Source of the DNA: a virus
Virus record (IMG/VR): IMGVR_UViG_3300025009_000054
Coordinates: 1 to 64,000 of that record
DNA length: 64,000 nucleotides
Strand: one strand, 5' to 3'
How positions within the stretch are numbered: position 1 is the first letter of the stretch; every line of letters begins with the position of its first letter. Positions 643-50,385 of this stretch are shown here, piece after piece. The position numbers were made by a program, and so were the translations under genes. The notes beneath the pieces are model-generated. The model searched no databases. It was not told the origin of the DNA and was given only the letters and a program-made list of their open reading frames with translations.

Positions 643-675
643 AGTGTAGACGTCTACAGCGACCAAGATGTCGCC
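643..675 (-). promoter_or_regulatory. ECF-type promoter motif copy
   Basis: Plus strand AGTGTAGACG-N17-GTCGCC. Confidence 0.7.
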
Positions 676-679
676 AACT

Positions 680-1036
680 TTATTTCTCTTCATTTTCCAA
701 CATATGTTCCAGTATCGTTCCTTTATAGAAGTCCTCCACTGGTACCCAAAATTTATGCACCATTACGTGATACGATACACCACTAAACGCGTTATATAAT
801 TCTTCTATTTGATTATGAAGTGTGGAATAATGCTCATATAACATGTTCATACGAACGTCGTATGCTATATTATCATCATATATATTAAATGGTATAGGCG
901 CATCGATCATAGCTATAGACTTTTCGTCTATAGCGTTACGCATCCTTTCGCGGTAATTAAACACCTTATTATTACGCTCACTTACAATTATGGTCCATAT
1001 TATAGCAAGGACACACACTACCATGAGTATAGCCAT
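680..1036 (-). CDS. hypothetical protein with N-terminal TM helix
   Basis: ORF track; hydrophobic N-terminus. Confidence 0.7.
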   Translation of the reverse strand: MAILMVVCVLAIIWTIIVSERNNKVFNYRERMRNAIDEKSIAMIDAPIPFNIYDDNIAYDVRMNMLYEHYSTLHNQIEELYNAFSGVSYHVMVHKFWVPVEDFYKGTILEHMLENEEK

Positions 1037-1039
1037 TGT

Positions 1040-1645
1040 TTACCACCCCTTATCTAGACGCTCTTGTTGGGCATCATATATTTCTTGTATTATAATGTCA
1101 AGATTTGCTAGTGCTCCTATACCATCCGCGCCGCATGCAAGTTTTTTTCTCTGCGGTTCAACAACTGTCACAAACATTTCCTCAAGAGCCACTATATTAT
1201 GCATCGTGGGCTTACTATACCACATATTGGTATTCATGGCCGGAGCTACTACTAACGGTACACTCTGTGGCCTTGCGAGTACCACTGATGTCAGTAAATT
1301 ATCGGCGATACCGTTTACTATTTTGGCAATAGTATTTGCGGTTGCTGGTGCGATAACTATAACATCTGCCCATATCGCGAGTTCCACGTGCAACACTTTT
1401 TGATCTTTCACGTATTGATCTAAAATGACTCCATCATTACACCATTCTTCATACTCATGAAATAATCGAAAGTGCAGGTTGGTCTGAGATAGAACATGTA
1501 ACGCTGCCCTATCAGGCAAGAAGAAGTATTCAGCTTTCTCTGTGTAGACCATCTTTACGTCATGGCCTTCCTCAAGCAACATCTTTACAAATTTTAGCGT
1601 AAGGGTAGAGGCTACGCTACCAGTTACTCCAAGCAATATTTTCAT
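1040..1645 (-). CDS. coaC: phosphopantothenoylcysteine decarboxylase-like flavoprotein (HFCD family)
   Basis: KILLGVTGSVA, HVELAIWADVIVIAPATANTIAKIVNGIADNLLT, PAMNTNMW and LACGADGIG motifs. Confidence 0.9.
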   Translation of the reverse strand: MKILLGVTGSVASTLTLKFVKMLLEEGHDVKMVYTEKAEYFFLPDRAALHVLSQTNLHFRLFHEYEEWCNDGVILDQYVKDQKVLHVELAIWADVIVIAPATANTIAKIVNGIADNLLTSVVLARPQSVPLVVAPAMNTNMWYSKPTMHNIVALEEMFVTVVEPQRKKLACGADGIGALANLDIIIQEIYDAQQERLDKGW

Positions 1646-2301
1646 TTTAGATACTCCAACACTACCTTTCTAAGCATGAACGGCAGGTGATTTCGCTTCA
1701 CGTTCATGCAAGCGTCTTTATCGATTATGTACGCTCTCTGTGTGAACCACTCGAAGCAATTTGCAACGATTAGATCAGCATTAGAGTGTTCCATACTCTT
1801 CTTCGCGACGTCTATGAGCTGTTCATCAGTCATACCGGACTGCAACTTAAACTTCACGAGTACCCCTTTGAAGCCCCATCCGCGTATTCGATCGATAATC
1901 TTTGGTAGTTTTACCATAGTCATACGCATGGTATTAAAGTCCGAGCCTATCTTCGTAGATCGGTCTTGTTCTACCCATTCACCGTCCACAAGGGCTTCGA
2001 CAGTACTCACATCGTAGTCATTTACAGCCGCAGAATGAATTACTACGTCCGGTTGGTACTCCACGATACACTTCTTCATAAAGTCATGCAAATGTGTGAA
2101 AGTGTGAAACTTCATCACCTGCACTCCAGGCAAGCTCTCCCTCTTTACTCTATCGTCAGAAGTTAGTAGTATTACTTCATCGCCCTGCTCAGCGAAATAC
2201 TCAGCGATCTGAGTACCTGTCGACCCCCTGAATTTATTCTTAATCACACGAACAGTGTCTATCTCGGACTCTGTCGGTCCACCAGTTACTAGTACTAGCA
2301 T
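1642..2301 (-). CDS. coaB: phosphopantothenate-cysteine ligase-like protein (DFP domain)
   Basis: VLVTGGPTESEIDTVRVIKNKFRGSTG, IHSAAVNDY, VKFKL and ADLIVAN motifs; 4-nt overlap with coaC. Confidence 0.88.
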   Translation of the reverse strand: MLVLVTGGPTESEIDTVRVIKNKFRGSTGTQIAEYFAEQGDEVILLTSDDRVKRESLPGVQVMKFHTFTHLHDFMKKCIVEYQPDVVIHSAAVNDYDVSTVEALVDGEWVEQDRSTKIGSDFNTMRMTMVKLPKIIDRIRGWGFKGVLVKFKLQSGMTDEQLIDVAKKSMEHSNADLIVANCFEWFTQRAYIIDKDACMNVKRNHLPFMLRKVVLEYLK

Positions 2302-2747: not shown

Positions 2748-2758
2748 AATACCTCCTA

Positions 2759-8884: not shown

Positions 8885-9064
8885 CTAAACTTCCTTCTTC
8901 TCTTCTTCGGCCTTAATCTTTTCGACCACACTGTGCAGATCGTCCCTCAGTACCTGCTTTTCGTCTTCTGGCATACTCTTGAAAAAGGCGAATGCTGCTC
9001 TTTCGTTATTGCAGAGTAACTCTTGGAATGTCTGTATGTTCTGAATTCGTGTACTTACTGCCAT
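8885..9064 (-). CDS. hypothetical 59-aa protein (MAVSTRIQ...)
   Basis: My translation; initiation region identical to that of 8589..8861; downstream of promoter 9120. Confidence 0.65.
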   Translation of the reverse strand: MAVSTRIQNIQTFQELLCNNERAAFAFFKSMPEDEKQVLRDDLHSVVEKIKAEEEKKEV

Positions 9065-9119: not shown

Positions 9120-9152
9120 AGTGTAGACGGCTGGCACCCCCGAAGTGGTGCC
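9120..9152 (-). promoter_or_regulatory. ECF-type promoter motif copy
   Basis: AGTGTAGACG-N17-GGTGCC. Confidence 0.8.
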
Positions 9153-9165: not shown

Positions 9166-9483
9166 CTAGGCGGTCTGGGCTTCGGCTGCTCTCTTCTCTG
9201 CCAGCTTCGCGGCTCCCTTCGCCCCTGCCTCTTTGAATCTGGCCTTGAGTGCGTCGGATACCACGACTGCTGTGCCTAGCTCCAGCCCCGCTGCCTCTTC
9301 GTATGCGGTGAGGTCCATCGCGTGAACTGACTTGATGTGTGTCACCAGCGAATGTGCCTGATGGTCACAAAGTGCGCACTTCACCATCTCGCCATCCAGC
9401 GAGTATCCGCGCTGTGCGGCTCGTCGGGCTGATGCTCTCTTCTTTGCTCTGTCTTTCTGTTCCTGTGTTTGTTCTGTTGCCAT
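9166..9483 (-). CDS. Ros/MucR-like C2H2 zinc-finger protein (paralogue 1)
   Basis: CALCDHQAHSLVTHIKSVHAMDLTAYEEAAGL; start reassigned to MATEQ after GGAGG. Confidence 0.75.
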   Translation of the reverse strand: MATEQTQEQKDRAKKRASARRAAQRGYSLDGEMVKCALCDHQAHSLVTHIKSVHAMDLTAYEEAAGLELGTAVVVSDALKARFKEAGAKGAAKLAEKRAAEAQTA

Positions 9484-9532: not shown

Positions 9533-9565
9533 AGTGTAGACGCCCACCGCCCACCGAGCGGTGCC
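9533..9565 (-). promoter_or_regulatory. ECF-type promoter motif copy
   Basis: AGTGTAGACG-N17-GGTGCC. Confidence 0.8.
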
Positions 9566-9621: not shown

Positions 9622-9654
9622 AGTGTAGACGTCTACCACCGATGGAATGGGGCC
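9622..9654 (-). promoter_or_regulatory. ECF-type promoter motif copy (tandem with 9533)
   Basis: AGTGTAGACG-N17-GGGGCC. Confidence 0.78.
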
Positions 9655-10665: not shown

Positions 10666-11004
10666 CTAGTAGATTTCGCGCTTGTCAATGTCGGATTCCA
10701 TCGGTTCTTCACCAAGAATCGCCTTGACATCAATCATAGCACCATCTTCTAGCTCGTCAAAATGCTCCCTGATGTAGTCGTGAGCCGTGGTACGTGTTCG
10801 TGTATTGTCACCCCATTTGTAAGGATCATCTTGTACAGAGTTCATTTCCATGCAGATCATGTAGACTCCGCCATCACGACCCCATCCGGCTTTACCAAGG
10901 AGTTTATCTTCTCTACTCCCTAGTCTAGGATTAACCACCTTGATAGCCAATACTGGCATACAGGTCATATCATCCCTAACCTCAAAAATCTTTATCTCTT
11001 TCAT
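10666..11004 (-). CDS. hypothetical phage protein
   Basis: ORF track. Confidence 0.75.
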   Translation of the reverse strand: MKEIKIFEVRDDMTCMPVLAIKVVNPRLGSREDKLLGKAGWGRDGGVYMICMEMNSVQDDPYKWGDNTRTRTTAHDYIREHFDELEDGAMIDVKAILGEEPMESDIDKREIY

Positions 11005-11225
11005 TGGTTGTTGAACCCCAATTCCTTTGAGAGTCCAGGTGTCATACCGCCAAGAGATTTGAATTTCTCTTGAAAGTACTCATACAATCCCTCGTTCCTT
11101 GAATCGAAGATCGGGTGACCAATAGGAGCAAATCTCTGCAATCGACCCATATCATACTGAGTCATACCATCAATGCTCTTCTTATACTCCTCGATCTGCT
11201 CAGGCGTTAAAGGCTCTTTACTCAT
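11001..11225 (-). CDS. hypothetical phage protein
   Basis: ORF track; GGAGG RBS; first gene after promoter 11258. Confidence 0.75.
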   Translation of the reverse strand: MSKEPLTPEQIEEYKKSIDGMTQYDMGRLQRFAPIGHPIFDSRNEGLYEYFQEKFKSLGGMTPGLSKELGFNNQ

Positions 11226-11257: not shown

Positions 11258-11290
11258 AGTGTAGACGCATAGCAAGAGCGAAACGGCGCT
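11258..11290 (-). promoter_or_regulatory. ECF-type promoter motif copy
   Basis: AGTGTAGACG-N17-GGCGCT. Confidence 0.72.
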
Positions 11291-11294: not shown

Positions 11295-11615
11295 TTATAC
11301 GCGTTCCATTAGGACGGTGTACATGATAGTCTCGCTCTGTTTATTGATGAGGGTTGATGTGAATTTGCAGATGGAGTATCCGTCTTGCTTACTAGCCCAT
11401 TCTGCAAGAGCGTAGATATTTGATGTTTCATATCCTACGTACCTTGGAATAACTGGTGTTACTATTGTAGTAGCGGTCTTAGCTTTTGCATTACTGTACA
11501 TTCTACCATACCTTTCATGTATGTTTTTAGCCTTACCATCTTTAAAAACGATATCATGTCCTCTTAGTAGAGGAGTAGCCCCACTTTCGTGGGGCTTTAC
11601 CTTTTTGGTGGTCAC
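11295..11615 (-). CDS. hypothetical protein
   Basis: ORF track. Confidence 0.6.
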   Translation of the reverse strand: MTTKKVKPHESGATPLLRGHDIVFKDGKAKNIHERYGRMYSNAKAKTATTIVTPVIPRYVGYETSNIYALAEWASKQDGYSICKFTSTLINKQSETIMYTVLMERV

Positions 11616-11839
11616 TAGCAGCTACCATCACATTCATGCCCACAATCACCGCTACACTTATGAGGTTTGGCATCTGGATTGAGTTGTGGAATAGTCGTAC
11701 CAAACCAAATACCCAGTATCGATCCCATCATAAGGAGTGAACAACCATCATCTATTCGACCATGATTGCACCAGTACATTCCAAGACTGTCGGCCATTAT
11801 AGCCGCGAAGAAGATCATAAACCTATTTAATTTTTGCAT
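11615..11839 (-). CDS. small membrane protein with Cys/His tail
   Basis: Start MQKLNR directly after the promoter and GGAGG; two hydrophobic stretches. Confidence 0.65.
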   Translation of the reverse strand: MQKLNRFMIFFAAIMADSLGMYWCNHGRIDDGCSLLMMGSILGIWFGTTIPQLNPDAKPHKCSGDCGHECDGSC

Positions 11840-11852: not shown

Positions 11853-11885
11853 AGTGTAGACGTTCGGTTCAAGCCAGATGGTGCC
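11853..11885 (-). promoter_or_regulatory. ECF-type promoter motif copy
   Basis: Minus strand TTGGCACC-N17-CGTCTACACTCTTGGAGGTGGAAATG. Confidence 0.82.
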
Positions 11886-12143: not shown

Positions 12144-12371
12144 TTAGAACCTGCTGTGCCACATCTTGAGGATATCTCCCTTTTTGAGGTTGAGCACCTC
12201 GCCATCGCTCTCGTCAACGAAAGTGTGGTTTTCTTCAAGGACTACAGTACCAAGCTGGTTGATGTCCTTGCCTTCTCTCTTCGCGGCTTCGTGCATGCAA
12301 GCCGCGTGCCACAGTGACCATCTTAGTTCTAGTGGCTCTCCATCTCGTATGATTTGTGTTGATAACGGCAT
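12144..12371 (-). CDS. hypothetical protein
   Basis: Start MPLSTQ directly after the promoter and GGAGG. Confidence 0.7.
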   Translation of the reverse strand: MPLSTQIIRDGEPLELRWSLWHAACMHEAAKREGKDINQLGTVVLEENHTFVDESDGEVLNLKKGDILKMWHSRF

Positions 12372-12387: not shown

Positions 12388-12420
12388 AGTGTAGACGTTC
12401 AGTTGGGGTCGAGTGGCGCC
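12388..12420 (-). promoter_or_regulatory. ECF-type promoter motif copy
   Basis: AGTGTAGACG-N17-GGCGCC. Confidence 0.8.
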
Positions 12421-12478: not shown

Positions 12479-13090
12479 CTAGCCTGCTTGCTTGTGTGGA
12501 CAGTACCCGAATAGGCCAATTGAACAATTGCAATTCCAACACAATACCCTGAACTCCGATGGATACCCATTCTTTATTAGCCAACGATAGAATATCGCGC
12601 CACTTTTGCCACCAAAATCTTTATCTCTATGCGCTCTACCGCCACCGTTGGTATGGTCGATATTTAGAAATTCATGTCTACTCTCACCACAACACTCACA
12701 CCTACCACCGTAGTGGTCGATAACTTTCTGTTTTAAAGCTCTATATCTTAGTCTCTTCTTTTCTAAACACATTGAACACATACCAGACCCATGCTGAGCC
12801 GACCTAATCCTACAATAGGAGCAGAGATCGTTGTCCTTAGCATTGGAGGTTCTATTTCGTTCTATACTACGACACTCTGGGCACCATATTCCAGGTATGT
12901 TAACTGTAGTCTTTCCGCATTCAACGCAAAGAGACGTCGCTTTACGTTTCATTCGACGATTGGCATGATTTAGGCGTTCATTCTCCAAACATAAGCTACA
13001 CGATTTATGTTTGCCATCAGGAGCATTTTTCCCACATCTAACACAAACACCTAAAGCTATTCTATTATCGATAGTATTCTGACAAGGCAT
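12479..13090 (-). CDS. HNH endonuclease-like protein with repeated CxxC Zn motifs
   Basis: CECCGESRHEFLNIDH...LCWNCN; three N-terminal CxxC...CxxC units. Confidence 0.8.
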   Translation of the reverse strand: MPCQNTIDNRIALGVCVRCGKNAPDGKHKSCSLCLENERLNHANRRMKRKATSLCVECGKTTVNIPGIWCPECRSIERNRTSNAKDNDLCSYCRIRSAQHGSGMCSMCLEKKRLRYRALKQKVIDHYGGRCECCGESRHEFLNIDHTNGGGRAHRDKDFGGKSGAIFYRWLIKNGYPSEFRVLCWNCNCSIGLFGYCPHKQAG

Positions 13091-13132
13091 TATGCCCTCC
13101 TATGCGCCACGCTTACTCACATAGTAGAGCTG

Positions 13133-13176: not shown

Positions 13177-13482
13177 CTAGCTAGCCCTTTTGCTTTCTCG
13201 CGTTGCCTCTCCGCCCTTCGCCCCTGCCTTGACGAAGCGTGCGCGGAGTGCCTCGCTGACGAGGTTCGCTGTGCCGAGCTCCAGCCCTGCGGCTTCCTCG
13301 TACCCTGCCGCGTCCAGCGCGTGGGCTGTGCGAAGGTGGCTGACGAGGCTGTGGGCTGTGTGACCGCACAGAGCGCACGAGACGCCCTCGCCCTCCAGCG
13401 TGTAGCCTCGCTTCGCGGCTCTCCTCGCGCTTGCTCTCGCTGCTGCTCTTGCCTTCTGCTCTACTGTCTGCTCTGTTACCAT
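13177..13482 (-). CDS. Ros/MucR-like zinc-finger protein (paralogue 2)
   Basis: CALCGHTAHSLVSHLRTAHALDAAGYEEAAGL; start MVTEQ after GGAGG. Confidence 0.75.
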   Translation of the reverse strand: MVTEQTVEQKARAAARASARRAAKRGYTLEGEGVSCALCGHTAHSLVSHLRTAHALDAAGYEEAAGLELGTANLVSEALRARFVKAGAKGGEATRESKRAS

Positions 13483-13526: not shown

Positions 13527-13559
13527 AGTGTAGACGTCCTGCGCTCCCCACGTGGTGCC
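13527..13559 (-). promoter_or_regulatory. ECF-type promoter motif copy
   Basis: AGTGTAGACG-N17-GGTGCC. Confidence 0.8.
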
Positions 13560-13608: not shown

Positions 13609-13641
13609 AGTGTAGACGTCTGCCGATATCTAGGTGGTGCC
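13609..13641 (-). promoter_or_regulatory. ECF-type promoter motif copy (tandem with 13527)
   Basis: AGTGTAGACG-N17-GGTGCC. Confidence 0.8.
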
Positions 13642-13886
13642 AATATCCGAGGGGTACTCCAGATATACCCCTATGGGAATATATACTAATAGTATAGACG
13701 TATGGTATATCCCGAATGGGGATAATATGGGTATATAGGGATATCTGACGACTTTTCAGTCGTCATGTCGTCATATACGTCATATATGGGATATACTATA
13801 TGGTGGGATGTGCTTAAGGTATGTGGGGTAGCTATTTGTTGGAGTGGGCGGGGTGGTTAGCCCCGCCCGATTCGCTGTGTGGTTGA

Positions 13887-14216
13887 CTATCCGTTGGCTG
13901 ATTGGGCTGCTTTCTTCTCGGCTAGCTTGGCTGCTCCCTTGGCCCCTGCCTCCTTGAATCTCGCCTGGAGTGACGGGCTGATCACAACTGCCGTACCTAG
14001 CGCGAGTCCTGCAGCTTCTTCATATGCTGTTAGGTCCATTGCGTGCGCACTCTTGATGTGCGTTACTAGACTGTGTGCTTCGTATTCGCAAAGTGCGCAC
14101 TTGATCGTATCTGCTCCGAGCTGGTAGCCTCGCTGGGCTGCTCTGCGTGCTGCTGCTCTGGTCTTGCTTCGCTGTTCCTGTGCGATCTGCTCTGCTGTCT
14201 TTGTTGTGTTTGCCAT
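13887..14216 (-). CDS. Ros/MucR-like zinc-finger protein (paralogue 3)
   Basis: CALCEYEAHSLVTHIKSAHAMDLTAYEEAAGL. Confidence 0.75.
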   Translation of the reverse strand: MANTTKTAEQIAQEQRSKTRAAARRAAQRGYQLGADTIKCALCEYEAHSLVTHIKSAHAMDLTAYEEAAGLALGTAVVISPSLQARFKEAGAKGAAKLAEKKAAQSANG

Positions 14217-14281: not shown

Positions 14282-14314
14282 AGTGTAGACGCCTGGCCCC
14301 GGTTGGGCGGTGCC
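14282..14314 (-). promoter_or_regulatory. ECF-type promoter motif copy
   Basis: AGTGTAGACG-N17-GGTGCC. Confidence 0.8.
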
Positions 14315-14322: not shown

Positions 14323-14529
14323 CTATATCAGAGTTTCGATCTCAAGCTGGAGATTATATAGCAATGATCCAATCTCCTCCAGCCTCTTTATCTGTCTATC
14401 CATCTTATTTTTATCACAGACTGCCCGATCTAGTCCTCGATTTAGTGCACGTACCAATCCTTCTGCCTGTGCTGTCGCTGTCTTAGCTGCATCTTCTAAT
14501 TCGTACGCGCACCTTATGTTTTTATCCAT
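14323..14529 (-). CDS. small coiled-coil protein
   Basis: ORF track; GGAGG RBS. Confidence 0.65.
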   Translation of the reverse strand: MDKNIRCAYELEDAAKTATAQAEGLVRALNRGLDRAVCDKNKMDRQIKRLEEIGSLLYNLQLEIETLI

Positions 14530-14580: not shown

Positions 14581-14613
14581 AGTGTAGACGTCTGGTGCCG
14601 GATAAACGGTGCT
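14581..14613 (-). promoter_or_regulatory. ECF-type promoter motif copy
   Basis: AGTGTAGACG-N17-GGTGCT. Confidence 0.78.
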
Positions 14614-14784
14614 AATATGGCATATCCTATATCGTTATATGGCATGACGGCTGGAAAGTCGTTATGTCACGTGACGACCAAACTATTAGGCTACGCTTAT
14701 ATATCTTAATTATTTATTATATGGGATGTAATTGGGGATAAAAGTGGGCTGGCTTTTGACCAGCCCTAGTGGAGGTTCGCGCTT

Positions 14785-15707: not shown

Positions 15708-15740
15708 AGTGTAGACGTACGGTGAAGCTAGAGCGGTGCC
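15708..15740 (-). promoter_or_regulatory. ECF-type promoter motif copy
   Basis: AGTGTAGACG-N17-GGTGCC. Confidence 0.8.
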
Positions 15741-16912: not shown

Positions 16913-16945
16913 AGTGTAGACGTACGGTGAGAAACAAATGGTGTC
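16913..16945 (-). promoter_or_regulatory. ECF-type promoter motif copy
   Basis: AGTGTAGACG-N17-GGTGTC. Confidence 0.75.
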
Positions 16946-18175: not shown

Positions 18176-18208
18176 AGTGTAGACGCACGACACGCGACGA
18201 ACGCTGTT
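18176..18208 (-). promoter_or_regulatory. ECF-type promoter motif copy (degenerate -35)
   Basis: AGTGTAGACG-N17-GCTGTT. Confidence 0.65.
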
Positions 18209-39515: not shown

Positions 39516-40025
39516 CTATGATTGCATCGGAGCATCATATTTGTAGGCTCCGATTGCTATTAATATTGCTGCCGTTGTGAGCAGTCTTGGATCTCCAGTT
39601 GTGCATATGGCTCGTACGTAGTCGCCCATATCGTTTAAGGCTATGCCATTTGATGCCGAGTTTATTTCCGTGATATGCAATGCTGCATCGCGGGTTTCAG
39701 CATCCGATAGGATTGTGCGGACCGTATCGCGTGATACCGGTTGTCCAGACTCCGCTAATCTCCCCAAATAGTACGCCACCATGCATGGTCTACAACAAAA
39801 ACTGTGTTCTTCTTCATTATCAATTACAGAGAGCCATCCATCGGGTATGTTTACGTTCTCTACTGGCTGTTCTACATCTAATCCGCAATGATTACAAAAG
39901 TATTCCTCTACTTTTGTATCATCAGACTGTCCTCCATGCAGTACACGGAATATTTGATCAGCCATATTTACACCCCCGACAGCATCTTTACCGATCTTCG
40001 TATCCAGAGTTGGATACTGTGTCAT
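39516..40025 (-). CDS. hypothetical protein with CNHC...FCC..C motif
   Basis: First gene after promoter 40073; GGAGG RBS. Confidence 0.7.
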   Translation of the reverse strand: MTQYPTLDTKIGKDAVGGVNMADQIFRVLHGGQSDDTKVEEYFCNHCGLDVEQPVENVNIPDGWLSVIDNEEEHSFCCRPCMVAYYLGRLAESGQPVSRDTVRTILSDAETRDAALHITEINSASNGIALNDMGDYVRAICTTGDPRLLTTAAILIAIGAYKYDAPMQS

Positions 40026-40072: not shown

Positions 40073-40105
40073 AGTGTAGACGTACAGCAAGGAGCGAATG
40101 GGGCC
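40073..40105 (-). promoter_or_regulatory. ECF-type promoter motif copy
   Basis: AGTGTAGACG-N17-GGGGCC. Confidence 0.78.
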
Positions 40106-41088: not shown

Positions 41089-41514
41089 TCAATGTATAAT
41101 GTGGTATCTACACATAAGAGTTGCATCGTCTACACCTGGTACGGTTGGTATAGAGGCTTCGCTACTCCAAAACTCGGTTTCTGCTTTATATGCTTCACTA
41201 CGCGTATGAAATCTATATGACCTTAATATTTTCACTATGATAGGCAATACAATTCTGCTATTATCAATAAGTGTTATCTCCATTATCGATGTACCAAGTT
41301 TATTATTACTATCGATAGGGTATATTGGAGTAGTTATTTCTAACATGTTTCTAGGATCCACATACCCTAAATAGCTAGAATACGCTTGATGATCCCATTT
41401 TGTGGGCAATGGTTCTTCCATCCCGTTAGGGAATAATACTTCCATCAACATTCTACTCCAGTCTATAATATTTACCATCTTTACATCTGAAGTATCATCG
41501 TCATTATATAGCAT
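41089..41514 (-). CDS. hypothetical protein
   Basis: First gene after promoter 41579. Confidence 0.65.
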   Translation of the reverse strand: MLYNDDDTSDVKMVNIIDWSRMLMEVLFPNGMEEPLPTKWDHQAYSSYLGYVDPRNMLEITTPIYPIDSNNKLGTSIMEITLIDNSRIVLPIIVKILRSYRFHTRSEAYKAETEFWSSEASIPTVPGVDDATLMCRYHIIH

Positions 41515-41578: not shown

Positions 41579-41611
41579 AGTGTAGACGTACGGGGAGCAC
41601 TAGACGTCGTT
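41579..41611 (-). promoter_or_regulatory. ECF-type promoter motif copy (degenerate -35)
   Basis: AGTGTAGACG-N17-GTCGTT. Confidence 0.6.
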
Positions 41612-41637
41612 AATTCTATTTCCGCTATCCAAATAAT

Positions 41638-41674
41638 GATAATGGCTAAGTCCGATGTAGACTTAGCCATTATC
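41638..41674 (-). terminator. hairpin ending the cargo/sigma gene run
   Basis: GATAATGGCTAAGTC...GACTTAGCCATTATC 15-bp stem. Confidence 0.65.
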
Positions 41675-41699
41675 AGTGAACAAACCACGAGAAATAAGA

Positions 41700-41966
41700 T
41701 CAAGTCGCGGTTCCTATCTTTTGTTTCTTCGATTCTCGTATTGCCTTTTGTACAAACTCAATCGCTATATAGATAACTCCCCAATATATAGCAATCTTCT
41801 CGTTAGTATTGATTGCGCTATGCAACCAAGTAATCCAATTATCAGAGCAATAAGTCAGCAACGCTGACCCAGCAATAGTGGCAAACCTTCTGAGTATTGC
41901 CCCAGCCGCGATCGCCCACGGCTTCCAGTTTTCCTCACTTTTGAGTAGCTGTACCAACCAGTTCAT
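41700..41966 (-). CDS. small membrane protein, holin-like
   Basis: Two hydrophobic helices and a basic C-terminus. Confidence 0.5.
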   Translation of the reverse strand: MNWLVQLLKSEENWKPWAIAAGAILRRFATIAGSALLTYCSDNWITWLHSAINTNEKIAIYWGVIYIAIEFVQKAIRESKKQKIGTAT

Positions 41967-41981: not shown

Positions 41982-44444
41982 TTACACCTTCGTTATCTCC
42001 ATAATAGGGAAATTGACAGCATACTCGCCATTTTTCTTCTTCATTTCATCGATACGCTTAGCCCAAGGCGAACTACGTGGTGCTACTCTATCAACTAGGA
42101 CGAGTGCAGTCTCTGTATCTGGGTTAATATTATCGACTATACCACGCAACTGGTATGTAGAACCAGTCTGCGGATCACGTCTATTAATAGCGACTTCATC
42201 ACCAATTTTGAATGGTATACTAGTCTCAGGTTTCGCATTAGGGTCGTACAGATACTGCAACGGTGCCATCTGGTTATTAACGATGTTATTACCCTTACCA
42301 ACAGCATCCTTAACGCGCTCAACTTTCCTCTTATACTCAGTAGAACCTGGCTCTAGTCCATCAGTCATTCCAAGTGCGTCCGCTACCATCTCTCTATTCC
42401 ATGGGTGTGTTGTGCTACTTGGAAAAGTATGATACATAAGCCACGCATCGCGATGATGTTCTGGCATGTTACTAATTGCATCAGATATTGGAGCTATCGT
42501 ATCTTCCCACTCCATCTGTTCCTGCATCTTGTGTGGTGATCTAATAGCATTTGGTCCATTTGCTTCAAATGAATCATTGCCATCATCACCTGGATCACCT
42601 TCGCTACTGTTTCCATGAGGCGCATCAAGTGATATCTGGTTATCTTCGCGTAACTTCTGTTTACGCAGGTAATCCTTTTTCTGATTATGGGCTATCATAA
42701 ATAGCCATGTCTTAAAACTAGAATTGCCCTTGAACGTATCAATCTTTGCGTATGCGTTAACAAACGTTGACTGAGCAACATCATGTGCCATTTCTTGATT
42801 GCAACCTTCACTCACCATTAGGCCGACCACATTATTATAATTCTTAGATATTAGCTCATCCCACGCACCCTGATTACCTTGGCGTGCTGCATCTACCAGT
42901 GCAAGTTCCTTAGGGTCAACGTTGCGGTAGGTCGGGCGTAGACCCTTCTTACCTTTCTTTGCCGTAAGCACGTACACTTCTTGTGCTATCGCATCAACAT
43001 CACCCTTACTAAGTTTAACACCACTAGACCTGATTTCATCGATGAATATACGGAATGCATCGTTAAAATCCTTAACTTCATTCTCATCATACTCTTCGTA
43101 TATTCGATCCTCCTCTGCTAGGAAGTCCTGTGCGAATTCTTCTACTTGGTCGATTGACAGAGTACGATTTACCAGGCTCTTATTTTTAGTACCCTGATCT
43201 TTAGGACGGGGTATACTTCTATCGAATGTATCGCGTTTCCTTATATCCCCATCATGCTGTCTCTGGAATAATTGCTGCAATATGGGATCTTCTTGTATAT
43301 CATCATCGTCTGATTCAACGCTCTCTGGTAGAAGTCTATCATCTTCACCAGTATATGAATCAGTTTGTATATCCGGAGTCTTGCTAGCATCAATATCATC
43401 GACTACAGGAGCTGTCTTACGACGCTTTACACGACGTCTAACGTCAGCTCTGCTCTCGTCACTATCTGTTTCTTTTGTTTTTGGTGTAGATGTTACGCCC
43501 TTTGGCTTCATATCCCAAGTCATAAGTCCAGCATATGACTCCAACTGGTCCATAGCATCCGAGTCACCAATAACATTCTCAAACCGACTTTTATCAGCAT
43601 TATATGATCGACGTGACAGATGAAATCCCATATCTTCTAGGAGCCCTATATTTTCACGTGTAGTCTGTACCCATCCAACATACTTATCGGCCTTGACTCT
43701 TTCGCCATCTTCTTGCGATACTATTGGCCGACCATAGTGGTCTATAGCTACCACTGACTTAGGTTTTTCATTAGGCGCTATATATCCACATTGTACTGTC
43801 GTGACGAATACACCGTAAAATTGGCCACCAGGTATACCAACTTTAGATTTTTGTTCATATTGGTGCATGATCTCTCCTTCATACACCGGTATCTGATCAC
43901 CATACTCATCGAGTTTAGGTTCACCTTTTTTATATTTAATATACTCTCTTCCGTCTTCATCGGTATCCATAACATTTTCATTATATCGCTCATACTTGGG
44001 CTGTTCGGATTCCTGCATTGTGGATGGTGCACTTCCCATCATCCTTGGTGCAGTAGCGGATGGGTCTAATGTGTGTCCAAGTCCTTGATAATACTTGCAC
44101 CTTACACCAGGAATTACTCCAGTTGTCTCATCCCACCGCTCTTCGTCCCATACTAGCACCGATGTTGGTGCCGCCGATATATCAGGTGCCCCACGACATA
44201 TCTTTACGAAATGTCTGTCACGAAGTAACGGGCATTTCACCATCCCAGGATATTGTATTATACGGTCGACGTATGGCTCAATATGATAGCCAGCATCATC
44301 AGCAATACGCTTGAGTTCCGCTACAGTAACTCCAAGAGTTTTAGCCATCTGTACATCATCTGATCTAAGTAGAGTTTTTGATGCACGTTTGGTAAGATAT
44401 GTTCCCATTTCTGGATATCTATGAAGCAATTCACACAATTCCAT
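41982..44444 (-). CDS. 820-aa multidomain protein containing an ECF sigma factor and a C-terminal KOW/SH3-like domain
   Basis: Sigma2: ELALVDAARQGNQGAWDELI...AHDVAQSTFVNAY...FKGNSSFKTWLFMIAHN...DYLRK. Sigma4: ISDAISNMPEHHRDAW...REMVADALGM. Confidence 0.85.
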   Translation of the reverse strand: MELCELLHRYPEMGTYLTKRASKTLLRSDDVQMAKTLGVTVAELKRIADDAGYHIEPYVDRIIQYPGMVKCPLLRDRHFVKICRGAPDISAAPTSVLVWDEERWDETTGVIPGVRCKYYQGLGHTLDPSATAPRMMGSAPSTMQESEQPKYERYNENVMDTDEDGREYIKYKKGEPKLDEYGDQIPVYEGEIMHQYEQKSKVGIPGGQFYGVFVTTVQCGYIAPNEKPKSVVAIDHYGRPIVSQEDGERVKADKYVGWVQTTRENIGLLEDMGFHLSRRSYNADKSRFENVIGDSDAMDQLESYAGLMTWDMKPKGVTSTPKTKETDSDESRADVRRRVKRRKTAPVVDDIDASKTPDIQTDSYTGEDDRLLPESVESDDDDIQEDPILQQLFQRQHDGDIRKRDTFDRSIPRPKDQGTKNKSLVNRTLSIDQVEEFAQDFLAEEDRIYEEYDENEVKDFNDAFRIFIDEIRSSGVKLSKGDVDAIAQEVYVLTAKKGKKGLRPTYRNVDPKELALVDAARQGNQGAWDELISKNYNNVVGLMVSEGCNQEMAHDVAQSTFVNAYAKIDTFKGNSSFKTWLFMIAHNQKKDYLRKQKLREDNQISLDAPHGNSSEGDPGDDGNDSFEANGPNAIRSPHKMQEQMEWEDTIAPISDAISNMPEHHRDAWLMYHTFPSSTTHPWNREMVADALGMTDGLEPGSTEYKRKVERVKDAVGKGNNIVNNQMAPLQYLYDPNAKPETSIPFKIGDEVAINRRDPQTGSTYQLRGIVDNINPDTETALVLVDRVAPRSSPWAKRIDEMKKKNGEYAVNFPIMEITKV

Positions 44445-44481: not shown

Positions 44482-45006
44482 TTATTCGGATTCGTAGCCT
44501 TCTGGTTCTGCTGAAAATACTAGGTTGACGATTAATTCGCCACTGTCTCCGATCCTTGGTACAGTAACAGATGAGAATGTCCAGTTATCACCATAGATAC
44601 CCACGGACCCGCTGATGCTATCGTAAACTTCTGACCATTTGATATAGTCGTTGGCGTTAAGCTCTTCTATTACTACGTCTTGCACTTCCTTCGCATTTGA
44701 AGGATCGTTAATTCCAGGTATCCCACTAAAGGCTAGCGATATATCACCTGTGATATACATCTTTGAGGGCTGATGTTGGGATAGACCAGATTGCGCTTCA
44801 CCATAACATTCGAGTACTGTCATGATATTGGGCAACTGTTCAGTATCTAGTTCAAATTCTTCTGCATTACCCTCCTGAGCACTATGTAAACTCGCATGTG
44901 ATACCATGCTAGTTAGCCATTCCATGTCTTGCCTCCAAAGGCTCAACGAACACGGGGCCGACGGTTCCACACTTCCATTATACCACGAAAAGCCCATTCT
45001 TGTCAA
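44482..45006 (-). CDS. acidic hypothetical protein
   Basis: ORF track; real start probably MEWLTS. Confidence 0.65.
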   Translation of the reverse strand: MTRMGFSWYNGSVEPSAPCSLSLWRQDMEWLTSMVSHASLHSAQEGNAEEFELDTEQLPNIMTVLECYGEAQSGLSQHQPSKMYITGDISLAFSGIPGINDPSNAKEVQDVVIEELNANDYIKWSEVYDSISGSVGIYGDNWTFSSVTVPRIGDSGELIVNLVFSAEPEGYESE

Positions 45007-45062: not shown

Positions 45063-47963
45063 CTATACTTGACGTCTCGCAACTCGCTGCTCATATTCCA
45101 CTTCAGCCTCAGCCTGACTACGAGCAGCTATGTAGTCGTTCTCGTCAAATTGACCATCCTGTATATCGTATTTGCTGTAATTGAAGTCATCAATTAGGAT
45201 TTCCTCAGTACGGTCTACAATCTCCTGCGATGCAGTTCTCATAGCCGATGCAGAAAATGGCATTGGATCCTGACTAGGAATACCACTAGTTCCACCTACT
45301 GATGGTCCGCTAGTTTCCCATGGAAGATTTCCGGCACCAGGCTGCCTACCCATCTGCGTGTCGAAGTCATTAGTTTTCTGTTCTTTACTTTTAAGATCCT
45401 CAACACGTCTTTTCTTTTTATCTTCTACGATACTGAGAATCCTCGCGGCTTCATTTGTTGCGTGAGAAGCAAGCCTACTACTTACACCATTGGCAATATC
45501 ATAAGCCCTTACCCACCTATCATATGAGCTGCCACCCATTCTACGTGCCATTGACTCTAGCATAGCAATATATCGCTTGCCATCTTCACCAGCATTCTTA
45601 ATCGTAGTTATGGTAGAAGCTAGATCCTGTACTATATGATCATCACTTGAGCCACGATAATCTGCACCAAGATCATTATATGCTTTCATATAGGCACCCT
45701 CAAGATCGCCTATATATCTCAATTGTGCGGCTCTATCCTCAGCTAATGCCATCTGAGTATTTGCCGGTAATCCCCATCTAGAATCGTGATCACCCATGGG
45801 TTTACCAAGAGTAGTAATAGATTTTTGATGATCTCGACCAAATGGATCACTATCCTCAAGCCCAGCTTCATCTTTATTACTATTCATTTCGTTCATGATT
45901 TGATCGGCAGTTGGACCAGCTTCGTGTGGTCCAACTCCAACATCTTTAAGTGTCATCTTTAAAGCATCTTTAAGGCTATTAGATCTATTTCTATTTGCAA
46001 GCAGTTTATCCGTAAAACGAGTCTTACCACTAGACGACCCATCTACATTAATGGATGAACTTGTACTATGATTTACCGCATCACCAGTTGGTGTACTAAG
46101 TACATCCGACAATTCACCATCAGTCTGTGCGGTTCTCATTCCAGTATCGCCACTAACCTCATGCCAGCCATCACTGTCATATCTATTTTTTACTCTCTGA
46201 CACTCAGCGTCACCATAGCAATCAGTAAGCAATTTGCCAGTCTCGGCATCTATGAAATCAAACCACGCCTCTTCTCCATCATGACTATGATCACTCTTGA
46301 TCATATATCCATTACTTACGTCACCATCCATGTCGCGAGTGGCGTGGCCTTCCAATTGATCTTCATGCCTCTGATCAGCATGAATGTCATCGTATTTATT
46401 ATCGTCTTGTGCTGTACGTCTGCCAGGTGACGGGTCATCATTATCGTCACTATCATATATACCAGCGCACATATTCTGTGCAGCCTCTCTAGACAATCTC
46501 TTTTTATGCCCAGTCTTACCAACGCCACAGCTCATAAGGTGAGCAACATGCCCATCAAATCCGCCTTCAAATGAGCCATCTTCGTTCATATGTCTGCAAT
46601 AGTGCTTCTTCGCTTCTACCTTTACCAGTCTAGCGAATTTATCCATATTGCGGGCACCACTGAAAAATCCACTCTGTGGTATAGATATATGCCCATCCCC
46701 ACGGAATTCTTCATCACTACGTATACCTAACTGCGTATCGGTATCAAAGTCGCGATGCATAGCCGGACTATCGTACTGACTGCGTTCTCTATCCTCATGA
46801 TATCCACACGATACGCATTCCATCTTAGCCCAGTGTGGTCCACCACCAGGAATCTCTTCCATATCATTTCCACACTCTGGACAACTACCCATTTCAGAAG
46901 TATCAGCATGGTACTGACTAGTCTTAATTTTCTTAGATTTACCATCTACACCAGCAGTATCAATCTCTACTATATTGAAATCTTTTATGCTATCTTCATA
47001 TTTCTTATCAGTAGGATTACCAAGATGCTGATTATGAGGTTCGGACAGCTCTACTGGCATGGTAAACGGAAGTGCTTCTCTTCCTTTAGGTGCTGAGACA
47101 TCGAACCCAAGATTTGCAATCTCATCAATAACTTCTTCAACATCATCACTGGACATTGATGAATTCATCTTCATCATACCATTGAAAACAGTCTGTATGT
47201 CCTGTCTCGTTTTTTGAGCTACTCTGAGAACCTCTTCGGCCATTCTAGGTGCCGATAATGGTGCACCAGGGAATACTGGATTTCCCCAAGGTCCACCTTT
47301 AAACCCTGCAGCAGTCTTATTCATAGCTGTTAGCTGGTTATGTACTATACTTTCATCACCATTTGGTGAAATATCGGTGCGGTCTGACATCTTACGTGTA
47401 CCAGATTTAGCTATACCAAGATCAACAGCCATATCTTCAAGACTCGGCTTTTCAAGTTGATCTAGAGCGGATGCAACTACCTCATCAAACTGCTCCGGAT
47501 CCAAGTTTTCCTTGAAATAGGTCATAGCCTTATCACGGTGTGTCCTAAAGAACAGACCTATATCATCGATCAGCTCTGTTCTAGTAAGAGTGTCAGCATC
47601 TTTACCGGTATTAAACGTAGTTAGTGCTTTATTAGTGGTGTCTACCATGCTGTCATCATTAGGATCGTCTACTGCATATCGACCATTTGCATATGTCACT
47701 ACAACCGGCATCTTAGATTGGCCTGTCGGGTTAACATATACAACGTCAAACTGTAGTTTTGCTACCCTAACGTTGCCAACACCACACGCATTGATGTCTA
47801 CGTTGAGCATATCCATGCCAGTAAACGAAGCCTGAGCCCCATCCAGTTTCAGAGACTTACAGTATTCACTTACCTTCTTATATGCACATTCGACTAGTCG
47901 GTGACGCTCATCACTACCAATCGATCTATCACTATTCGTATTGAGCGCGGCTTGTATACGCAT
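45063..47963 (-). CDS. 966-aa acidic modular protein, putative virion internal/cargo polyprotein
   Basis: KTAA, RRTAQ, MRTAQ and MRTAS motifs; internal CPEC...CVSC Zn ribbon. Confidence 0.7.
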   Translation of the reverse strand: MRIQAALNTNSDRSIGSDERHRLVECAYKKVSEYCKSLKLDGAQASFTGMDMLNVDINACGVGNVRVAKLQFDVVYVNPTGQSKMPVVVTYANGRYAVDDPNDDSMVDTTNKALTTFNTGKDADTLTRTELIDDIGLFFRTHRDKAMTYFKENLDPEQFDEVVASALDQLEKPSLEDMAVDLGIAKSGTRKMSDRTDISPNGDESIVHNQLTAMNKTAAGFKGGPWGNPVFPGAPLSAPRMAEEVLRVAQKTRQDIQTVFNGMMKMNSSMSSDDVEEVIDEIANLGFDVSAPKGREALPFTMPVELSEPHNQHLGNPTDKKYEDSIKDFNIVEIDTAGVDGKSKKIKTSQYHADTSEMGSCPECGNDMEEIPGGGPHWAKMECVSCGYHEDRERSQYDSPAMHRDFDTDTQLGIRSDEEFRGDGHISIPQSGFFSGARNMDKFARLVKVEAKKHYCRHMNEDGSFEGGFDGHVAHLMSCGVGKTGHKKRLSREAAQNMCAGIYDSDDNDDPSPGRRTAQDDNKYDDIHADQRHEDQLEGHATRDMDGDVSNGYMIKSDHSHDGEEAWFDFIDAETGKLLTDCYGDAECQRVKNRYDSDGWHEVSGDTGMRTAQTDGELSDVLSTPTGDAVNHSTSSSINVDGSSSGKTRFTDKLLANRNRSNSLKDALKMTLKDVGVGPHEAGPTADQIMNEMNSNKDEAGLEDSDPFGRDHQKSITTLGKPMGDHDSRWGLPANTQMALAEDRAAQLRYIGDLEGAYMKAYNDLGADYRGSSDDHIVQDLASTITTIKNAGEDGKRYIAMLESMARRMGGSSYDRWVRAYDIANGVSSRLASHATNEAARILSIVEDKKKRRVEDLKSKEQKTNDFDTQMGRQPGAGNLPWETSGPSVGGTSGIPSQDPMPFSASAMRTASQEIVDRTEEILIDDFNYSKYDIQDGQFDENDYIAARSQAEAEVEYEQRVARRQV

Positions 47964-48030
47964 TTGTACTCAACCTCCATCCCAACGCGTGTTGGGTATC
48001 ATACTTACACTACCATTAGTATAGTAGAGC

Positions 48031-49140
48031 CTACGACCAGGAATCCACTATCGTAGCACCACCGGACATTGCATTAGCCATGTCCTGTTCCTCGGTATCA
48101 TATACTCTAACAGACGATGGCATCGATTTACGCCCATCATTATATGCAGCCTTGATTGCCATAGAATCTCCATCTTCTACATATGGAAGCCTATCGTAAT
48201 ACTCAGGCGTCTCATCTAGATGAGCAAGAGCTATTTTAGCCGTCTCGATATCATCGTCGTCTGTGATGTTATTTTTACCAGCCTTAGTCCCATGCTCCAG
48301 CTCCACGTTTAGCCCATCGCAGAAGTCTTCTACCGTGAACGGGTTTGTATCCCAATTTATGCCAAGCTTCTCACCGATCTTCTTGGCTTCATCAATAGAG
48401 AATTTAGAGCGATGTTCCTTTTGTGCCGATACAGTCTTACATCTTGGGCATTTCTTACCTGTAAACTTCATACCACACTGTTTACATCTTACTTCTTGCA
48501 CTTCTTCTTCATATGGACCATGAATGCCCTTGTCGTACCGTTCTCCGTTAACCCTAACTTCTCCACCAGGCCATATTGAGACAGCCTTTTCACCATAAGC
48601 ATTCATGAGATATCCGGTAACATCGTTGATCCTTTGATCTTCAGCATGCTCCGCTGCTTCTTCACGCTGCTTCTTCATCTTCATCATGTACCCAAGCCAG
48701 CGTTTATGCTTCTCCTGCTTCTCCTGGTCTGATAGTCCAGCTACTGCGGCCATGCCACTCCGCTCGTGTATGTCCTCTACAATCTCGTCCATTTCAGACT
48801 GTGGGATTTTAGAACGTACACCATGTGGTATGTCATGCTCATGTTTAACCGAAATAACATCGTCACGGTCAACATTCTCGTCAAATAGGTCAATAGCAGT
48901 ATGTATGGGATGCTCAACGTAGTTTGGCATGGATTCACCAGTTGGGTAAACGAACGTGTAGCCACTCCTACCCTTCTTAGTGACCACTACATTATCGTCA
49001 CCCATGACATATATACGAGTATCTCTATCTGGAAGATCGTACCTCTCGCGTACTACAATACCAGGTTCATTATCTGGTCCAAGTTCTGTTGCCCTCATTT
49101 GAGCTATTCTACCTGGACCAGTAAATCGAATACTATCCAT
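48031..49140 (-). CDS. modular protein with DUF5661-like domain
   Basis: GLNVELEHG...TDDD..TAKIALAHLDETPEYYDRL; CKQC..CPRC. Confidence 0.7.
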   Translation of the reverse strand: MDSIRFTGPGRIAQMRATELGPDNEPGIVVRERYDLPDRDTRIYVMGDDNVVVTKKGRSGYTFVYPTGESMPNYVEHPIHTAIDLFDENVDRDDVISVKHEHDIPHGVRSKIPQSEMDEIVEDIHERSGMAAVAGLSDQEKQEKHKRWLGYMMKMKKQREEAAEHAEDQRINDVTGYLMNAYGEKAVSIWPGGEVRVNGERYDKGIHGPYEEEVQEVRCKQCGMKFTGKKCPRCKTVSAQKEHRSKFSIDEAKKIGEKLGINWDTNPFTVEDFCDGLNVELEHGTKAGKNNITDDDDIETAKIALAHLDETPEYYDRLPYVEDGDSMAIKAAYNDGRKSMPSSVRVYDTEEQDMANAMSGGATIVDSWS

Positions 49141-49158
49141 TACTAACTCCAGTCAGCT

Positions 49159-50286
49159 CTATACGCTAGCCCATTCCTCATTAGACGAATAATACGCCTT
49201 AGCTCCATTGCATTCCCAATATGGAACATATCCTCCGCGATCTGCACCCTCTGGGTGGGCGTCAACATATCCAGTTCCAGGGCAGTCAATGGGCTTTTCA
49301 TCTATGCCCAGTATTTGAACCTTACCTTTATTTACATCTGGGAACGCAGACTTCTGATTCAGCTCTTCAGCTAACTCTTCATTAGTCATAGAATCACCGC
49401 CAGAACCTGACATATCGTACTGTGCAGTTCTTGGTTCAGAGTTATCAGAGTAGCCACCCTGCTGTAGGGCATTATCGAATTCTTTTCTATCCCAGGTATG
49501 CTGTTCATTATCTTCTGTGGGCCCACCTACACCATGAATAGCTAGCACTATCGCATTATAGGCATCGCCATCTTGAGATCCAGGCTCAACATCACTGATA
49601 AGACCATTAGGACCGGAGACTTCTATGCTGCCCCACTCTGAATCTGACTCATATGAGACTCCATTGATTAGCCACTCTTGGTGGAAGTTACCATCATTTT
49701 CATCAGTCGATACGAGCCGAATATTGATGGTACCACCCTGCTCTTGTGCGGTTCTTGGTTTACCACTGTTAAGTTCATCCTGATCTGCGGGAGCGGTAGT
49801 CATATCTTGATACTTCACTACATATTTTGGTTTTCCGGTAGTGGGATCAATTGTAGAGCTGTCGATAGTACCGGATTTACCATTATAATTCACCTGCTGG
49901 CCATTACTATAGGTCTGCTGTGCCGTTTTCGACATAGCAACCTTGGCCCCACCAAACGATAGTGGCTTTAGACCTTTCGCTTGCAAGTAGCCACGTACCA
50001 TGTCATCATCGTCATCTTGCGCTCTAACAAGCATTTCGCCATCAACCATCCATATAGCTCCAGTTGACGGATGCTGATATACGCCCTTACCGTGATCTAC
50101 TAGCTGCGCGGTTACAGACCTACTAAACGGCACACTATCCCTGCCCTCTAGAACTACAGAAGTAGGGTCAATTTTATTACTAGCCGTCCTCATGCTGGCT
50201 GTCCGGTTCTCAGCGATAGCATCGGATTCTAAGTCTGTAAGAAAACTTGGCAGTTCATCGTACTGCCGCGCTATTTTTCTAAACAT
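49159..50286 (-). CDS. modular putative virion cargo polyprotein
   Basis: RTASMRTAS, KTAQ and two PRTAQ; last module paralogous to 23317..23649. Confidence 0.75.
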   Translation of the reverse strand: MFRKIARQYDELPSFLTDLESDAIAENRTASMRTASNKIDPTSVVLEGRDSVPFSRSVTAQLVDHGKGVYQHPSTGAIWMVDGEMLVRAQDDDDDMVRGYLQAKGLKPLSFGGAKVAMSKTAQQTYSNGQQVNYNGKSGTIDSSTIDPTTGKPKYVVKYQDMTTAPADQDELNSGKPRTAQEQGGTINIRLVSTDENDGNFHQEWLINGVSYESDSEWGSIEVSGPNGLISDVEPGSQDGDAYNAIVLAIHGVGGPTEDNEQHTWDRKEFDNALQQGGYSDNSEPRTAQYDMSGSGGDSMTNEELAEELNQKSAFPDVNKGKVQILGIDEKPIDCPGTGYVDAHPEGADRGGYVPYWECNGAKAYYSSNEEWASV

Positions 50287-50352
50287 GTGACACCTCCAAA
50301 GTGTTTGCTAATCAATATAGTAGGGTATGAGATATTTACGGTGATGTTCAAA

Positions 50353-50385
50353 AGTGTAGACGCACAACGAGAGCTAGGTGGTGCC
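50353..50385 (-). promoter_or_regulatory. ECF-type promoter motif copy heading the run that includes the ECF sigma gene
   Basis: AGTGTAGACG-N17-GGTGCC. Confidence 0.8.

Follow-up and report, generated by a model that had tools for sequence, protein, structure and literature searches.

The genome of the virus recorded as IMGVR_UViG_3300025009_000054 carries 22 copies of a bipartite sequence of 33 nucleotides (nt), here called class I sites. These sites probably constitute a single phage-specific promoter class, read by host core RNA polymerase (RNAP) together with P0001, a phage protein of 820 amino acids (aa) with a core of the extracytoplasmic function (ECF, or group 4) sigma factor type. 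The window analyzed here (64,000 nt) is the first part of a viral contig of 142,704 bp. In a crude gene call the minus strand carries 185 of the 197 genes, and GC skew is negative all along. Because the genes lie mostly on the minus strand, the motif is read as the reverse complement, GGCACC-N17-CGTCTACACT. From sequence we infer the firing of the sites, their start positions, the identity of the sigma factor, and the timing of expression.

A discrete class of 22 sites

The initial annotation had listed 19 copies of the motif in the window. The sequence AGTGTAGACG is found there in exact form 19 times, at the coordinates originally listed and always on the plus strand, compared with 0.13 expected and never more than 1 in dinucleotide-preserving shuffles of the window. 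A GGTGCC-like hexamer had been said to follow at exactly 17 nt, and it does so with no more than two mismatches in 17 of the 19 copies (0.01 expected for the 33-nt pattern). At 643, 18176, and 41579, where the hexamer had been called degenerate, the flanking TT and RYYY stay in register; the hexamers at 18176 and 41579 have three mismatches each. Three further sites lie outside the window, two with an exact core at genome positions 119106 and 140457 and one with a single core mismatch and a perfect hexamer at 101506. The 17-nt spacer is exact in all 22 sites.

The 22 sites themselves were turned into a position weight matrix, which was scanned over the whole genome, as the initial annotation had proposed, and set the class cleanly apart. 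The 22 sites score 37 to 59 bits, the next candidate (13691) scores 12.9 bits, nothing else exceeds 8 bits, and shuffled genomes reach at most 0.6 bits with the same matrix. The class I sites are therefore a discrete class and not the tail of a distribution. Weaker variants had also been proposed at 13691 and 10575; the first can be kept only as doubtful, and the second scores below 8 bits. The sites of the window, with the open reading frames (ORFs) that they precede, are as follows.

643-675, minus strand: class I site, GGCGAC-N17-CGTCTACACT, 46 bits, upstream of ORF 2-625
9120-9152, minus strand: class I site that precedes the 59-aa ORF 8885-9064 by 55 nt
9533-9565, minus strand: class I site that precedes the Ros/MucR-like ORF 9166-9483 by 49 nt
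9622-9654, minus strand: class I site, the upstream partner of 9533 in a tandem pair, 89 nt away
11258-11290, minus strand: class I site, upstream of ORF 11001-11225
11853-11885, minus strand: class I site 13 nt from the start of ORF 11615-11839, for which its GGAGG is the Shine-Dalgarno sequence
12388-12420, minus strand: class I site 16 nt from the start of ORF 12144-12371, for which its GGAGG is the Shine-Dalgarno sequence
13527-13559, minus strand: class I site, upstream of a Ros/MucR paralogue at about 13181-13476
13609-13641, minus strand: class I site, the upstream partner of 13527 in a tandem pair, 82 nt away
13691-13723, minus strand: weak variant, ATCCCC-N17-CGTCTATACT, 12.9 bits, doubtful
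14282-14314, minus strand: class I site, upstream of the Ros/MucR-like ORF 13887-14216
14581-14613, minus strand: class I site, upstream of ORF 14323-14529
15708-15740, minus strand: class I site, upstream of ORF 15168-15662
16913-16945, minus strand: class I site, upstream of the 368-aa ORF 15758-16864
18176-18208, minus strand: class I site with degenerate -35 AACAGC, 49 bits, upstream of the Ros/MucR-like ORF 17480-18118
19526-19558, minus strand: class I site, upstream of the Ros/MucR-like ORF 19102-19461
24697-24729, minus strand: class I site, upstream of ORF 24431-24658
40073-40105, minus strand: class I site, upstream of ORF 39516-40025
41579-41611, minus strand: class I site with degenerate -35 AACGAC, 37 bits, which comes right after the sigma-operon terminator and precedes ORF 41089-41514
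50353-50385, minus strand: class I site with the terminase gene on one side and the 375-aa ORF 49159-50286 on the other, at the head of the co-directional run that holds the sigma gene

Aligned on the gene (minus) strand, with positions counted from the first base of CGTC, the 22 sites read rTT-GGCACC-rYYY-N13-CGTCTACACT-yTTGGrGG. The conserved block is wider than had been reported, since it includes rTT before the hexamer, RYYY after it, and yTTGGrGG after the core. All 22 sites have CGTC, and all have C at -21 and at -18; T is found at -25 in 20/22. The last three positions of the -35 element are A in 16/22, C in 19/22, and C in 22/22. R-Y-Y-Y follows the hexamer directly, with a pyrimidine at -16, -15, and -14 in 22/22, 21/22, and 22/22 sites, respectively, and about 13 variable positions separate it from the invariant CGTCTACACT.

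In agreement with the initial annotation, the sites are intergenic, point in the direction of the genes, and lie upstream of a GGAGG and a start codon, with the end of the core 13 to 66 nt before that codon; the exceptions are the upstream members of the tandem pairs 9622/9533 and 13609/13527. Three units (11853, 12388, and probably 14581) use the motif's own GGAGG as their ribosome-binding site. Most other units have a short hairpin within the first nucleotides after the predicted start, followed by a second GGAGG. Hairpins of this kind, present at about 16 of the 22 sites, are a suggestive feature of the 5' leaders. At several sites (9120-9152, 9533-9565, and 643-675) the -35 hexamer also pairs with a stretch of the spacer, giving a hairpin of which the hexamer is the 5' arm, as in TGGCACC...GGTGCCA at 9120, and these structures may double as terminators of the upstream genes.

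Fourteen of the 22 sites are clustered at 9.1 to 19.6 kb, before small genes, and the other 8 are scattered. Several of the genes at 9 to 20 kb are paralogues (about five to seven) with Ros/MucR zinc-finger matches below the Pfam cut-off, and many end in GC-rich hairpins. Among the products of the regulon, only such subthreshold Ros/MucR-like matches and orphans were recognized. The coding DNA of the paralogues has drifted to 61 to 73% identity and the spacers are unalignable, while the core is 100% conserved, which indicates that selection acts on the core and that the sites were not recently copied. Promoters of the sigma70 type are not enriched at 8 to 26 kb (25 found, 28 expected), leaving the class I units without another evident promoter.

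These data bear on two ways of explaining the motif other than as a promoter. One is that it acts in RNA, as a shared leader, processing site, or stabilizer spread by gene duplication. The conserved yTTGGrGG, the frequent hairpins directly downstream, and the paralogy of several flanking genes speak for such a role, but the GGCACC block at a fixed distance upstream has no place in an RNA model, no Rfam family corresponds to the motif, the sites precede unrelated genes over 140 kb, and the spacers have fully diverged where the core has not. We regard an RNA-level role as extremely improbable. The other is that the core is mainly a protein-binding operator, occupied by a regulator such as one of the Ros/MucR-like paralogues. 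In cluster A mycobacteriophages, stoperators likewise take the form of a short sequence repeated at many intergenic positions, asymmetric and biased in orientation. The class I sites resemble them in being numerous, asymmetric, strictly oriented, and intergenic, and their core of 10 nt is invariant; the five to seven or so DNA-binding zinc-finger paralogues are among the genes downstream; and an operator would explain why TACACT is conserved beyond CGTC. Stoperators, however, are single repressor sites of 13 to 14 bp with neither a second block at fixed spacing nor a constant distance to the start codon, whereas class I sites have two blocks and are linked to the start. The second block at a fixed 17 nt, the constant short distance to the Shine-Dalgarno sequence and start, and the lack of another evident promoter for the class I units fit a promoter better. 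An operator as the main function is thus quite unlikely, though operator and promoter functions could coexist.

Promoter grammar and the candidate sigma factor P0001

According to Gaballa et al., ECF promoters keep close to their consensus, with AAC in the -35 element and spacers of 14 to 17 bp (PMC5758882). Their -10 elements are group specific, CGTC being read by sigmaM, sigmaX, sigmaV, and sometimes sigmaW, and a stimulatory T tract can adjoin the -35 element, as in tGAAACnTTTt (PMC5758882). The class I sites follow this grammar in their fixed 17-nt spacer, CGTC -10 element, pyrimidine tract adjacent to the -35 element, and near-perfect consensus; the layout GGCACC-r-YYY parallels TGAAAC-n-TTT. 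Compared with the ECF promoters of Bacillus subtilis (TGAAAC-N16-CGTA for sigmaW, CGTC for sigmaM, sigmaX, and sigmaV) and those of Escherichia coli sigmaE, the likeness lies in two blocks with a rigid 16- to 17-nt spacer, in CGTC, in the pyrimidine or T tract next to the -35 element, and in the tight consensus (PMC5758882). The phage sites differ from these systems in the GGCACC of the -35 element and in an invariant block that continues through TACACT into the start region.

The genome contains one clear match to Sigma70_r2 in a six-frame search (53 bits), and it falls inside P0001.

41982-44444, minus strand: P0001, 820 aa, with an orphan N-terminal region of about 500 aa, an ECF sigma2-sigma4 core at about residues 510-720, and a small beta-rich C-terminal domain

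Pfam Sigma70_r2 (PF04542; cut-off, 24 bits) matches residues 531-597 with 48.5 bits, and the ECF superfamily model TIGR02937 (cut-off, 42.9 bits) matches residues 527-694 with 56 bits, over positions 2-146 of its 165. Among the specific models SigY, RpoE, and SigW do best, and sequence matches in the PDB are all to ECF sigma factors (sigmaH, sigmaE, and sigmaW), with E values down to 6e-12. None of the Pfam sigma4 models reached its cut-off on P0001. A HMMER search of 1.8 billion representative proteins returned more than 12,000 matches; among those listed, all lie within residues 480-720 or so, and none is a relative of the first 480 or so residues. No full-length homologue was found among 5.8 billion clustered proteins or the 1.8 billion representatives.

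An AlphaFold (AF2) model of residues 500-820, made from an alignment of 31 ECF sigma factors, has predicted local distance difference test (pLDDT) scores of 94 to 98 in sigma2. Foldseek aligned the model over 205 to 222 columns, spanning sigma2 and sigma4, with full-length sigmaE, AlgU, SigW, and SigH, and its sigma2 superimposes on that of sigmaE bound to -10 DNA (4lup) with a template modeling (TM) score of 0.91 and a root mean square deviation of 1.2 A. The sigma2-sigma4 linker is about 35 residues long with low pLDDT, and there is no sigma1.1 or sigma3. Judged by these profile and fold matches, P0001 contains a genuine group 4 sigma core, and binding to core RNAP is predicted. It differs from the ECF sigma factors of Bacillus and E. 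coli in being phage encoded, in its length of 820 aa, in the orphan 500-aa N-terminal region, and in the extra C-terminal domain.

Within the core, sigma2 follows the ECF consensus (FxGxSxFxTWLxxIAxN), whereas the sigma4 recognition helix reads STEYKRKVERVK where the aligned ECF consensus is GTVKSRLxRAR, and a 7-residue insertion precedes it. An ordinary sigma2 beside a divergent sigma4 would mirror an ordinary CGTC -10 element beside an unusual GGCACC -35 element, and the new -35 specificity was apparently produced by remodeling of the sigma4 helix. P0001 is thus probably the reader of the class I sites.

The phage also encodes a second sigma-like protein.

57815-58582, minus strand: P0002, 255 aa, with an N-terminal Cys4 motif

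P0002 has weak matches to the phage sigma families phrog_351 and phrog_1025 and is 26% identical to a Bacillus phage sigma-70-family protein, and CGTC is a -10 element common to many cellular ECF sigma factors with overlapping specificities (PMC5758882). The sites might then be promoters read not by P0001 but by P0002, or by a host ECF sigma factor that the phage exploits. The sigma2 and sigma4 signals of P0002 are only marginal, however, with no ECF signature, and the CTACTAT sequences described below suit it better; a host ECF sigma factor would presumably require an AAC-containing -35 element; and with either reader the phage would have little reason to keep an intact ECF core behind a perfect host-type promoter. 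Another sigma factor as reader is therefore unlikely, although of the alternatives considered it deserves the most weight.

A further possibility is that the sites serve an unrecognized phage RNAP, either a divergent single-subunit enzyme or a multisubunit one. The invariant block from -12 to about +5 recalls T7-type promoters, and several large orphan proteins lack annotation. One of these is a 966-aa protein whose gene (window positions 45063-47963) immediately precedes the sigma operon. It carries RDMDGD at residue 544 and weakly matches an RPB9-type zinc ribbon; no evidence of a polymerase was found for it, and its atlas model is poor (predicted TM score, 0.22). Against a phage RNAP, the models RNA_pol, Rpb1_2, and Rpb2_6 found no match in the genome, while Rpb1 and Rpb2 were found in all control genomes. 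The T7-type model PF00940 also had no match in the phage, a weak result since the control genomes gave none either. The 966-, 1,423-, and 1,273-aa orphans had no informative match in the PDB or the structure atlas. Two blocks separated by a spacer of variable sequence and 17 nt in length are the signature of sigma2/sigma4 recognition, and the phage has kept two sigma-like genes. A phage RNAP as reader is very unlikely on this evidence.

Four known classes of element were also compared with the motif and rejected. TGGCAC of the sigma-54 consensus (TGGCAC-N5-TTGC, in which the GG at -24 and the GC at -12 are 10 nt apart) is present, but no TTGC or -12 GC element follows 5 nt on. TTGGCA and TACACT are 23 nt apart, which excludes a housekeeping sigma-70/sigmaA promoter. 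A T7-like single-subunit RNAP promoter was set aside for lack of an RNAP family match and because the motif is bipartite with a variable spacer, where such promoters have a single continuous block of about 20 nt. Rfam gave no match to the motif as a known RNA family and only one tRNA in the genome, a tRNA-Leu (anticodon TAA) at window positions 29712-29796.

The sigma operon and a proposed order of transcription

P0001 is the middle gene of a three-gene operon with the following landmarks.

44977-45006, minus strand: host-type promoter TTGACA-N18-(TGg)TATAAT, the sole 12/12 match in the genome, heading the sigma operon
44482-44925, minus strand: P0154, a 147-aa acidic orphan, first gene of the operon
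41700-41966, minus strand: P0153, 88 aa with two hydrophobic segments, last gene of the operon
41637-41675, minus strand: intrinsic terminator with a 17-bp stem followed by TTATTT, closing the operon; no other terminator-like structure in the region is as strong

The whole genome, both strands included, was scanned for TTGACA-N16-18-TATAAT. Exactly one perfect match was found. It has an extended TG, is intergenic, and lies directly upstream of P0154; by a base-frequency estimate about 0.05 perfect matches are expected by chance in 285 kb of two-strand sequence. With this promoter directly upstream and the terminator directly after, the sigma gene is, as far as its sequence tells, a self-contained unit under an ideal host promoter. 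A perfect host-type promoter in this position would be expected if the host holoenzyme must first make the phage sigma factor, and it suggests an ordered handover of transcription from host to phage. P0153 occupies the position where an anti-sigma gene usually sits; no anti-sigma partner of P0001 was recognized. The nearest promoter upstream of P0001 is of the sigma70 type, and the class I site at 50353 heads the same gene run 5.9 kb upstream, so that positive feedback on the sigma operon through this putative route is possible.

A second sequence may define a later class. CTACTAT(A) occurs 10 times in the 70 nt before start codons, compared with 1.2 expected, an eightfold enrichment. It lies 11 to 60 nt before the starts of portal-side genes and of large orphan genes at genome positions 114 to 137 kb, and before four genes of the window (in regions 12479-13127, 45063-48027, 49159-50323, and 57089-57807). 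We regard it as a candidate late promoter class; as a single -10-like element before late genes it resembles the late promoters of T4 or phiEco32 (PMC4331800). P0002 is more likely to read the CTACTAT class than the class I sites.

In the mechanism that we propose, the host housekeeping (sigma-A) holoenzyme would use the perfect promoter at 45006 after DNA entry and transcribe P0154, P0001, and P0153, stopping at the strong terminator. P0001 would then guide core polymerase to the GGCACC-N17-CGTC sites, its sigma2 reading the CGTC -10 element and its divergent sigma4 helix the GGCACC -35 element, and so drive the regulon of 22 sites. Transcription would start about 6 to 8 nt after CGTCTA, giving RNAs that begin near (U)GGAGG, and this 5' GGAGG would either serve as the ribosome-binding site, as in the three short leaders, or be folded into a hairpin before a second GGAGG. 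The regulon would comprise the 14 small units at 9 to 20 kb, including the Ros/MucR-like paralogues, and the 8 scattered sites, including that of the sigma-gene run. The CTACTAT late class would follow as a third step.

Other features of the genome provide a setting for this scheme. At least five independent assemblies of the phage are known, of 142.7 to 142.8 kb, and their start points differ, suggesting that the genome is complete and either circular or circularly permuted, even though its completeness was estimated at 82%. The other assemblies are 100% identical over the regions retrieved, leaving no usable single-nucleotide polymorphisms. The abundance of GGAGG sites, together with the extended -10 promoter, is a hint, no more, of Gram-positive-like machinery for translation and transcription. 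Three sets of repeats were seen in the window. AT-rich copies of roughly ATATAGTATATCCCATATAT on the minus strand (13782-13809, 14613-14640, and 24786-25059) are clustered in three unusually long intergenic regions upstream of 13609, 14581, and 24697 and may be putative regulator binding sites or iterons. At 20241-20322, within the 193-nt intergenic region 20133-20325, there are three tandem units of about 22 to 24 nt, each with the palindrome GTTTCGC-CCGCGAAAC. The 10-mer TGGGTAGTGG is repeated three times in tandem at 25372-25411, inside or beside ORF 25144-25539.

Comparison with known systems and significance

The initial annotation had proposed a phage-specific ECF-type regulon. Every available sequence-level test agrees with this proposal, and a phage ECF sigma core has been found; several observations nevertheless weigh against it. 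The -35 element, GGCACC, lacks AAC, the ECF hallmark. Invariance runs 6 nt past CGTC (TACACT) into the start region, farther than in usual ECF promoters, and a further factor could be responsible. The 5' hairpins barely beat shuffled sequences (mean z, -0.7). The presence of P0002 means that a second sigma-like protein is available, and given this the assignment of P0001 to the class I promoters is one that we infer. Large orphan proteins (966, 1,423, 1,273, 803, and 760 aa) are without assignment. Downstream of the site at 101506 is a 384-aa protein (genome 100305-101459) with a C-terminal helix-turn-helix of the GerE/LuxR type (22 bits, just below the cut-off), which may be a further transcription factor in the regulon. 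In the viral collection the 33-nt pattern gave single hits only, at the chance rate, with no multicopy contig; in the metagenome and genome collections the matches listed were likewise single copies at the chance rate. Neither P0001 nor the terminase has relatives in viral contigs.

Phage-encoded sigma factors with private promoters are known from several systems. The cascade of Bacillus phage SPO1 uses host sigmaA for early, gp28 for middle, and gp33/34 for late genes. The likeness lies in the succession from host sigma factor to phage sigma factor to private bipartite promoters before many small genes, and then to a late class (PMC13401047). The SPO1 sigma factors, in contrast, are not ECF-like and the promoters are unrelated, and in the present phage there is one perfect host promoter and the timing is deduced. 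The gp36 protein of phiEco32 and the sigma factor of Salmonella phage 7-11 are phage sigma factors with overrepresented private motifs that were found by scanning the genome (PMC4331800). Their promoters, however, are single -10-like elements (TAATGTATA and TGATGT) with no -35 block, the sigma factors are small, and the phages are unrelated to this one.

We also considered whether P0001 is packaged and delivered with the DNA, serves the transcription of a genome containing 2-aminoadenine (Z), or both. Delivery is suggested by the location of the gene among terminase-side genes, near a protein of the ART-PolyVal type, and by the 500-aa orphan N-terminal region. The neighboring protein (323 aa, window positions 54061-55032) has an ART-PolyVal domain in Pfam and lies in the terminase-side block that it shares with the sigma gene. 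ART-PolyVal is a type of ADP-ribosyltransferase found in injected polyvalent proteins. The phage encodes a PurA/PurZ-family protein (genome 98094-99296) that matches PurZ0 (7vf6; E value, 9e-37) and archaeal PurA and is a candidate for Z-base specificity, and the phage also carries Pol III genes. ECF sigma2 domains capture the flipped cytosine of CGTC, whereas housekeeping sigma factors must recognize adenine. A promoter class that is read through C would thus free most phage transcription from adenine-specific recognition of the -10 element. Delivery of P0001, or a role in Z-DNA transcription, is nevertheless unlikely.

A phage sigma cascade with a private promoter class is of a known kind. 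This one stands out in that canonical ECF grammar is joined to a -35 element not seen before, in that the sigma factor is a giant fusion protein, and in that a single perfect host promoter feeds its gene. If the interpretation is correct, the phage holds a complete orthogonal sigma-promoter pair with 22 natural promoter variants of graded match, which would be usable in synthetic biology, where orthogonal ECF sigma-promoter sets are sought. An ECF core with the new -35 specificity GGCACC would likewise inform how ECF sigma factors change specificity, and the 500-aa N-terminal extension, which has no known counterpart on a sigma factor, needs explaining. For this orphan lineage of 143 kb, the result would be a three-step program, from host promoter to ECF regulon to CTACTAT late class, with a logic plausibly comparable to that of SPO1.

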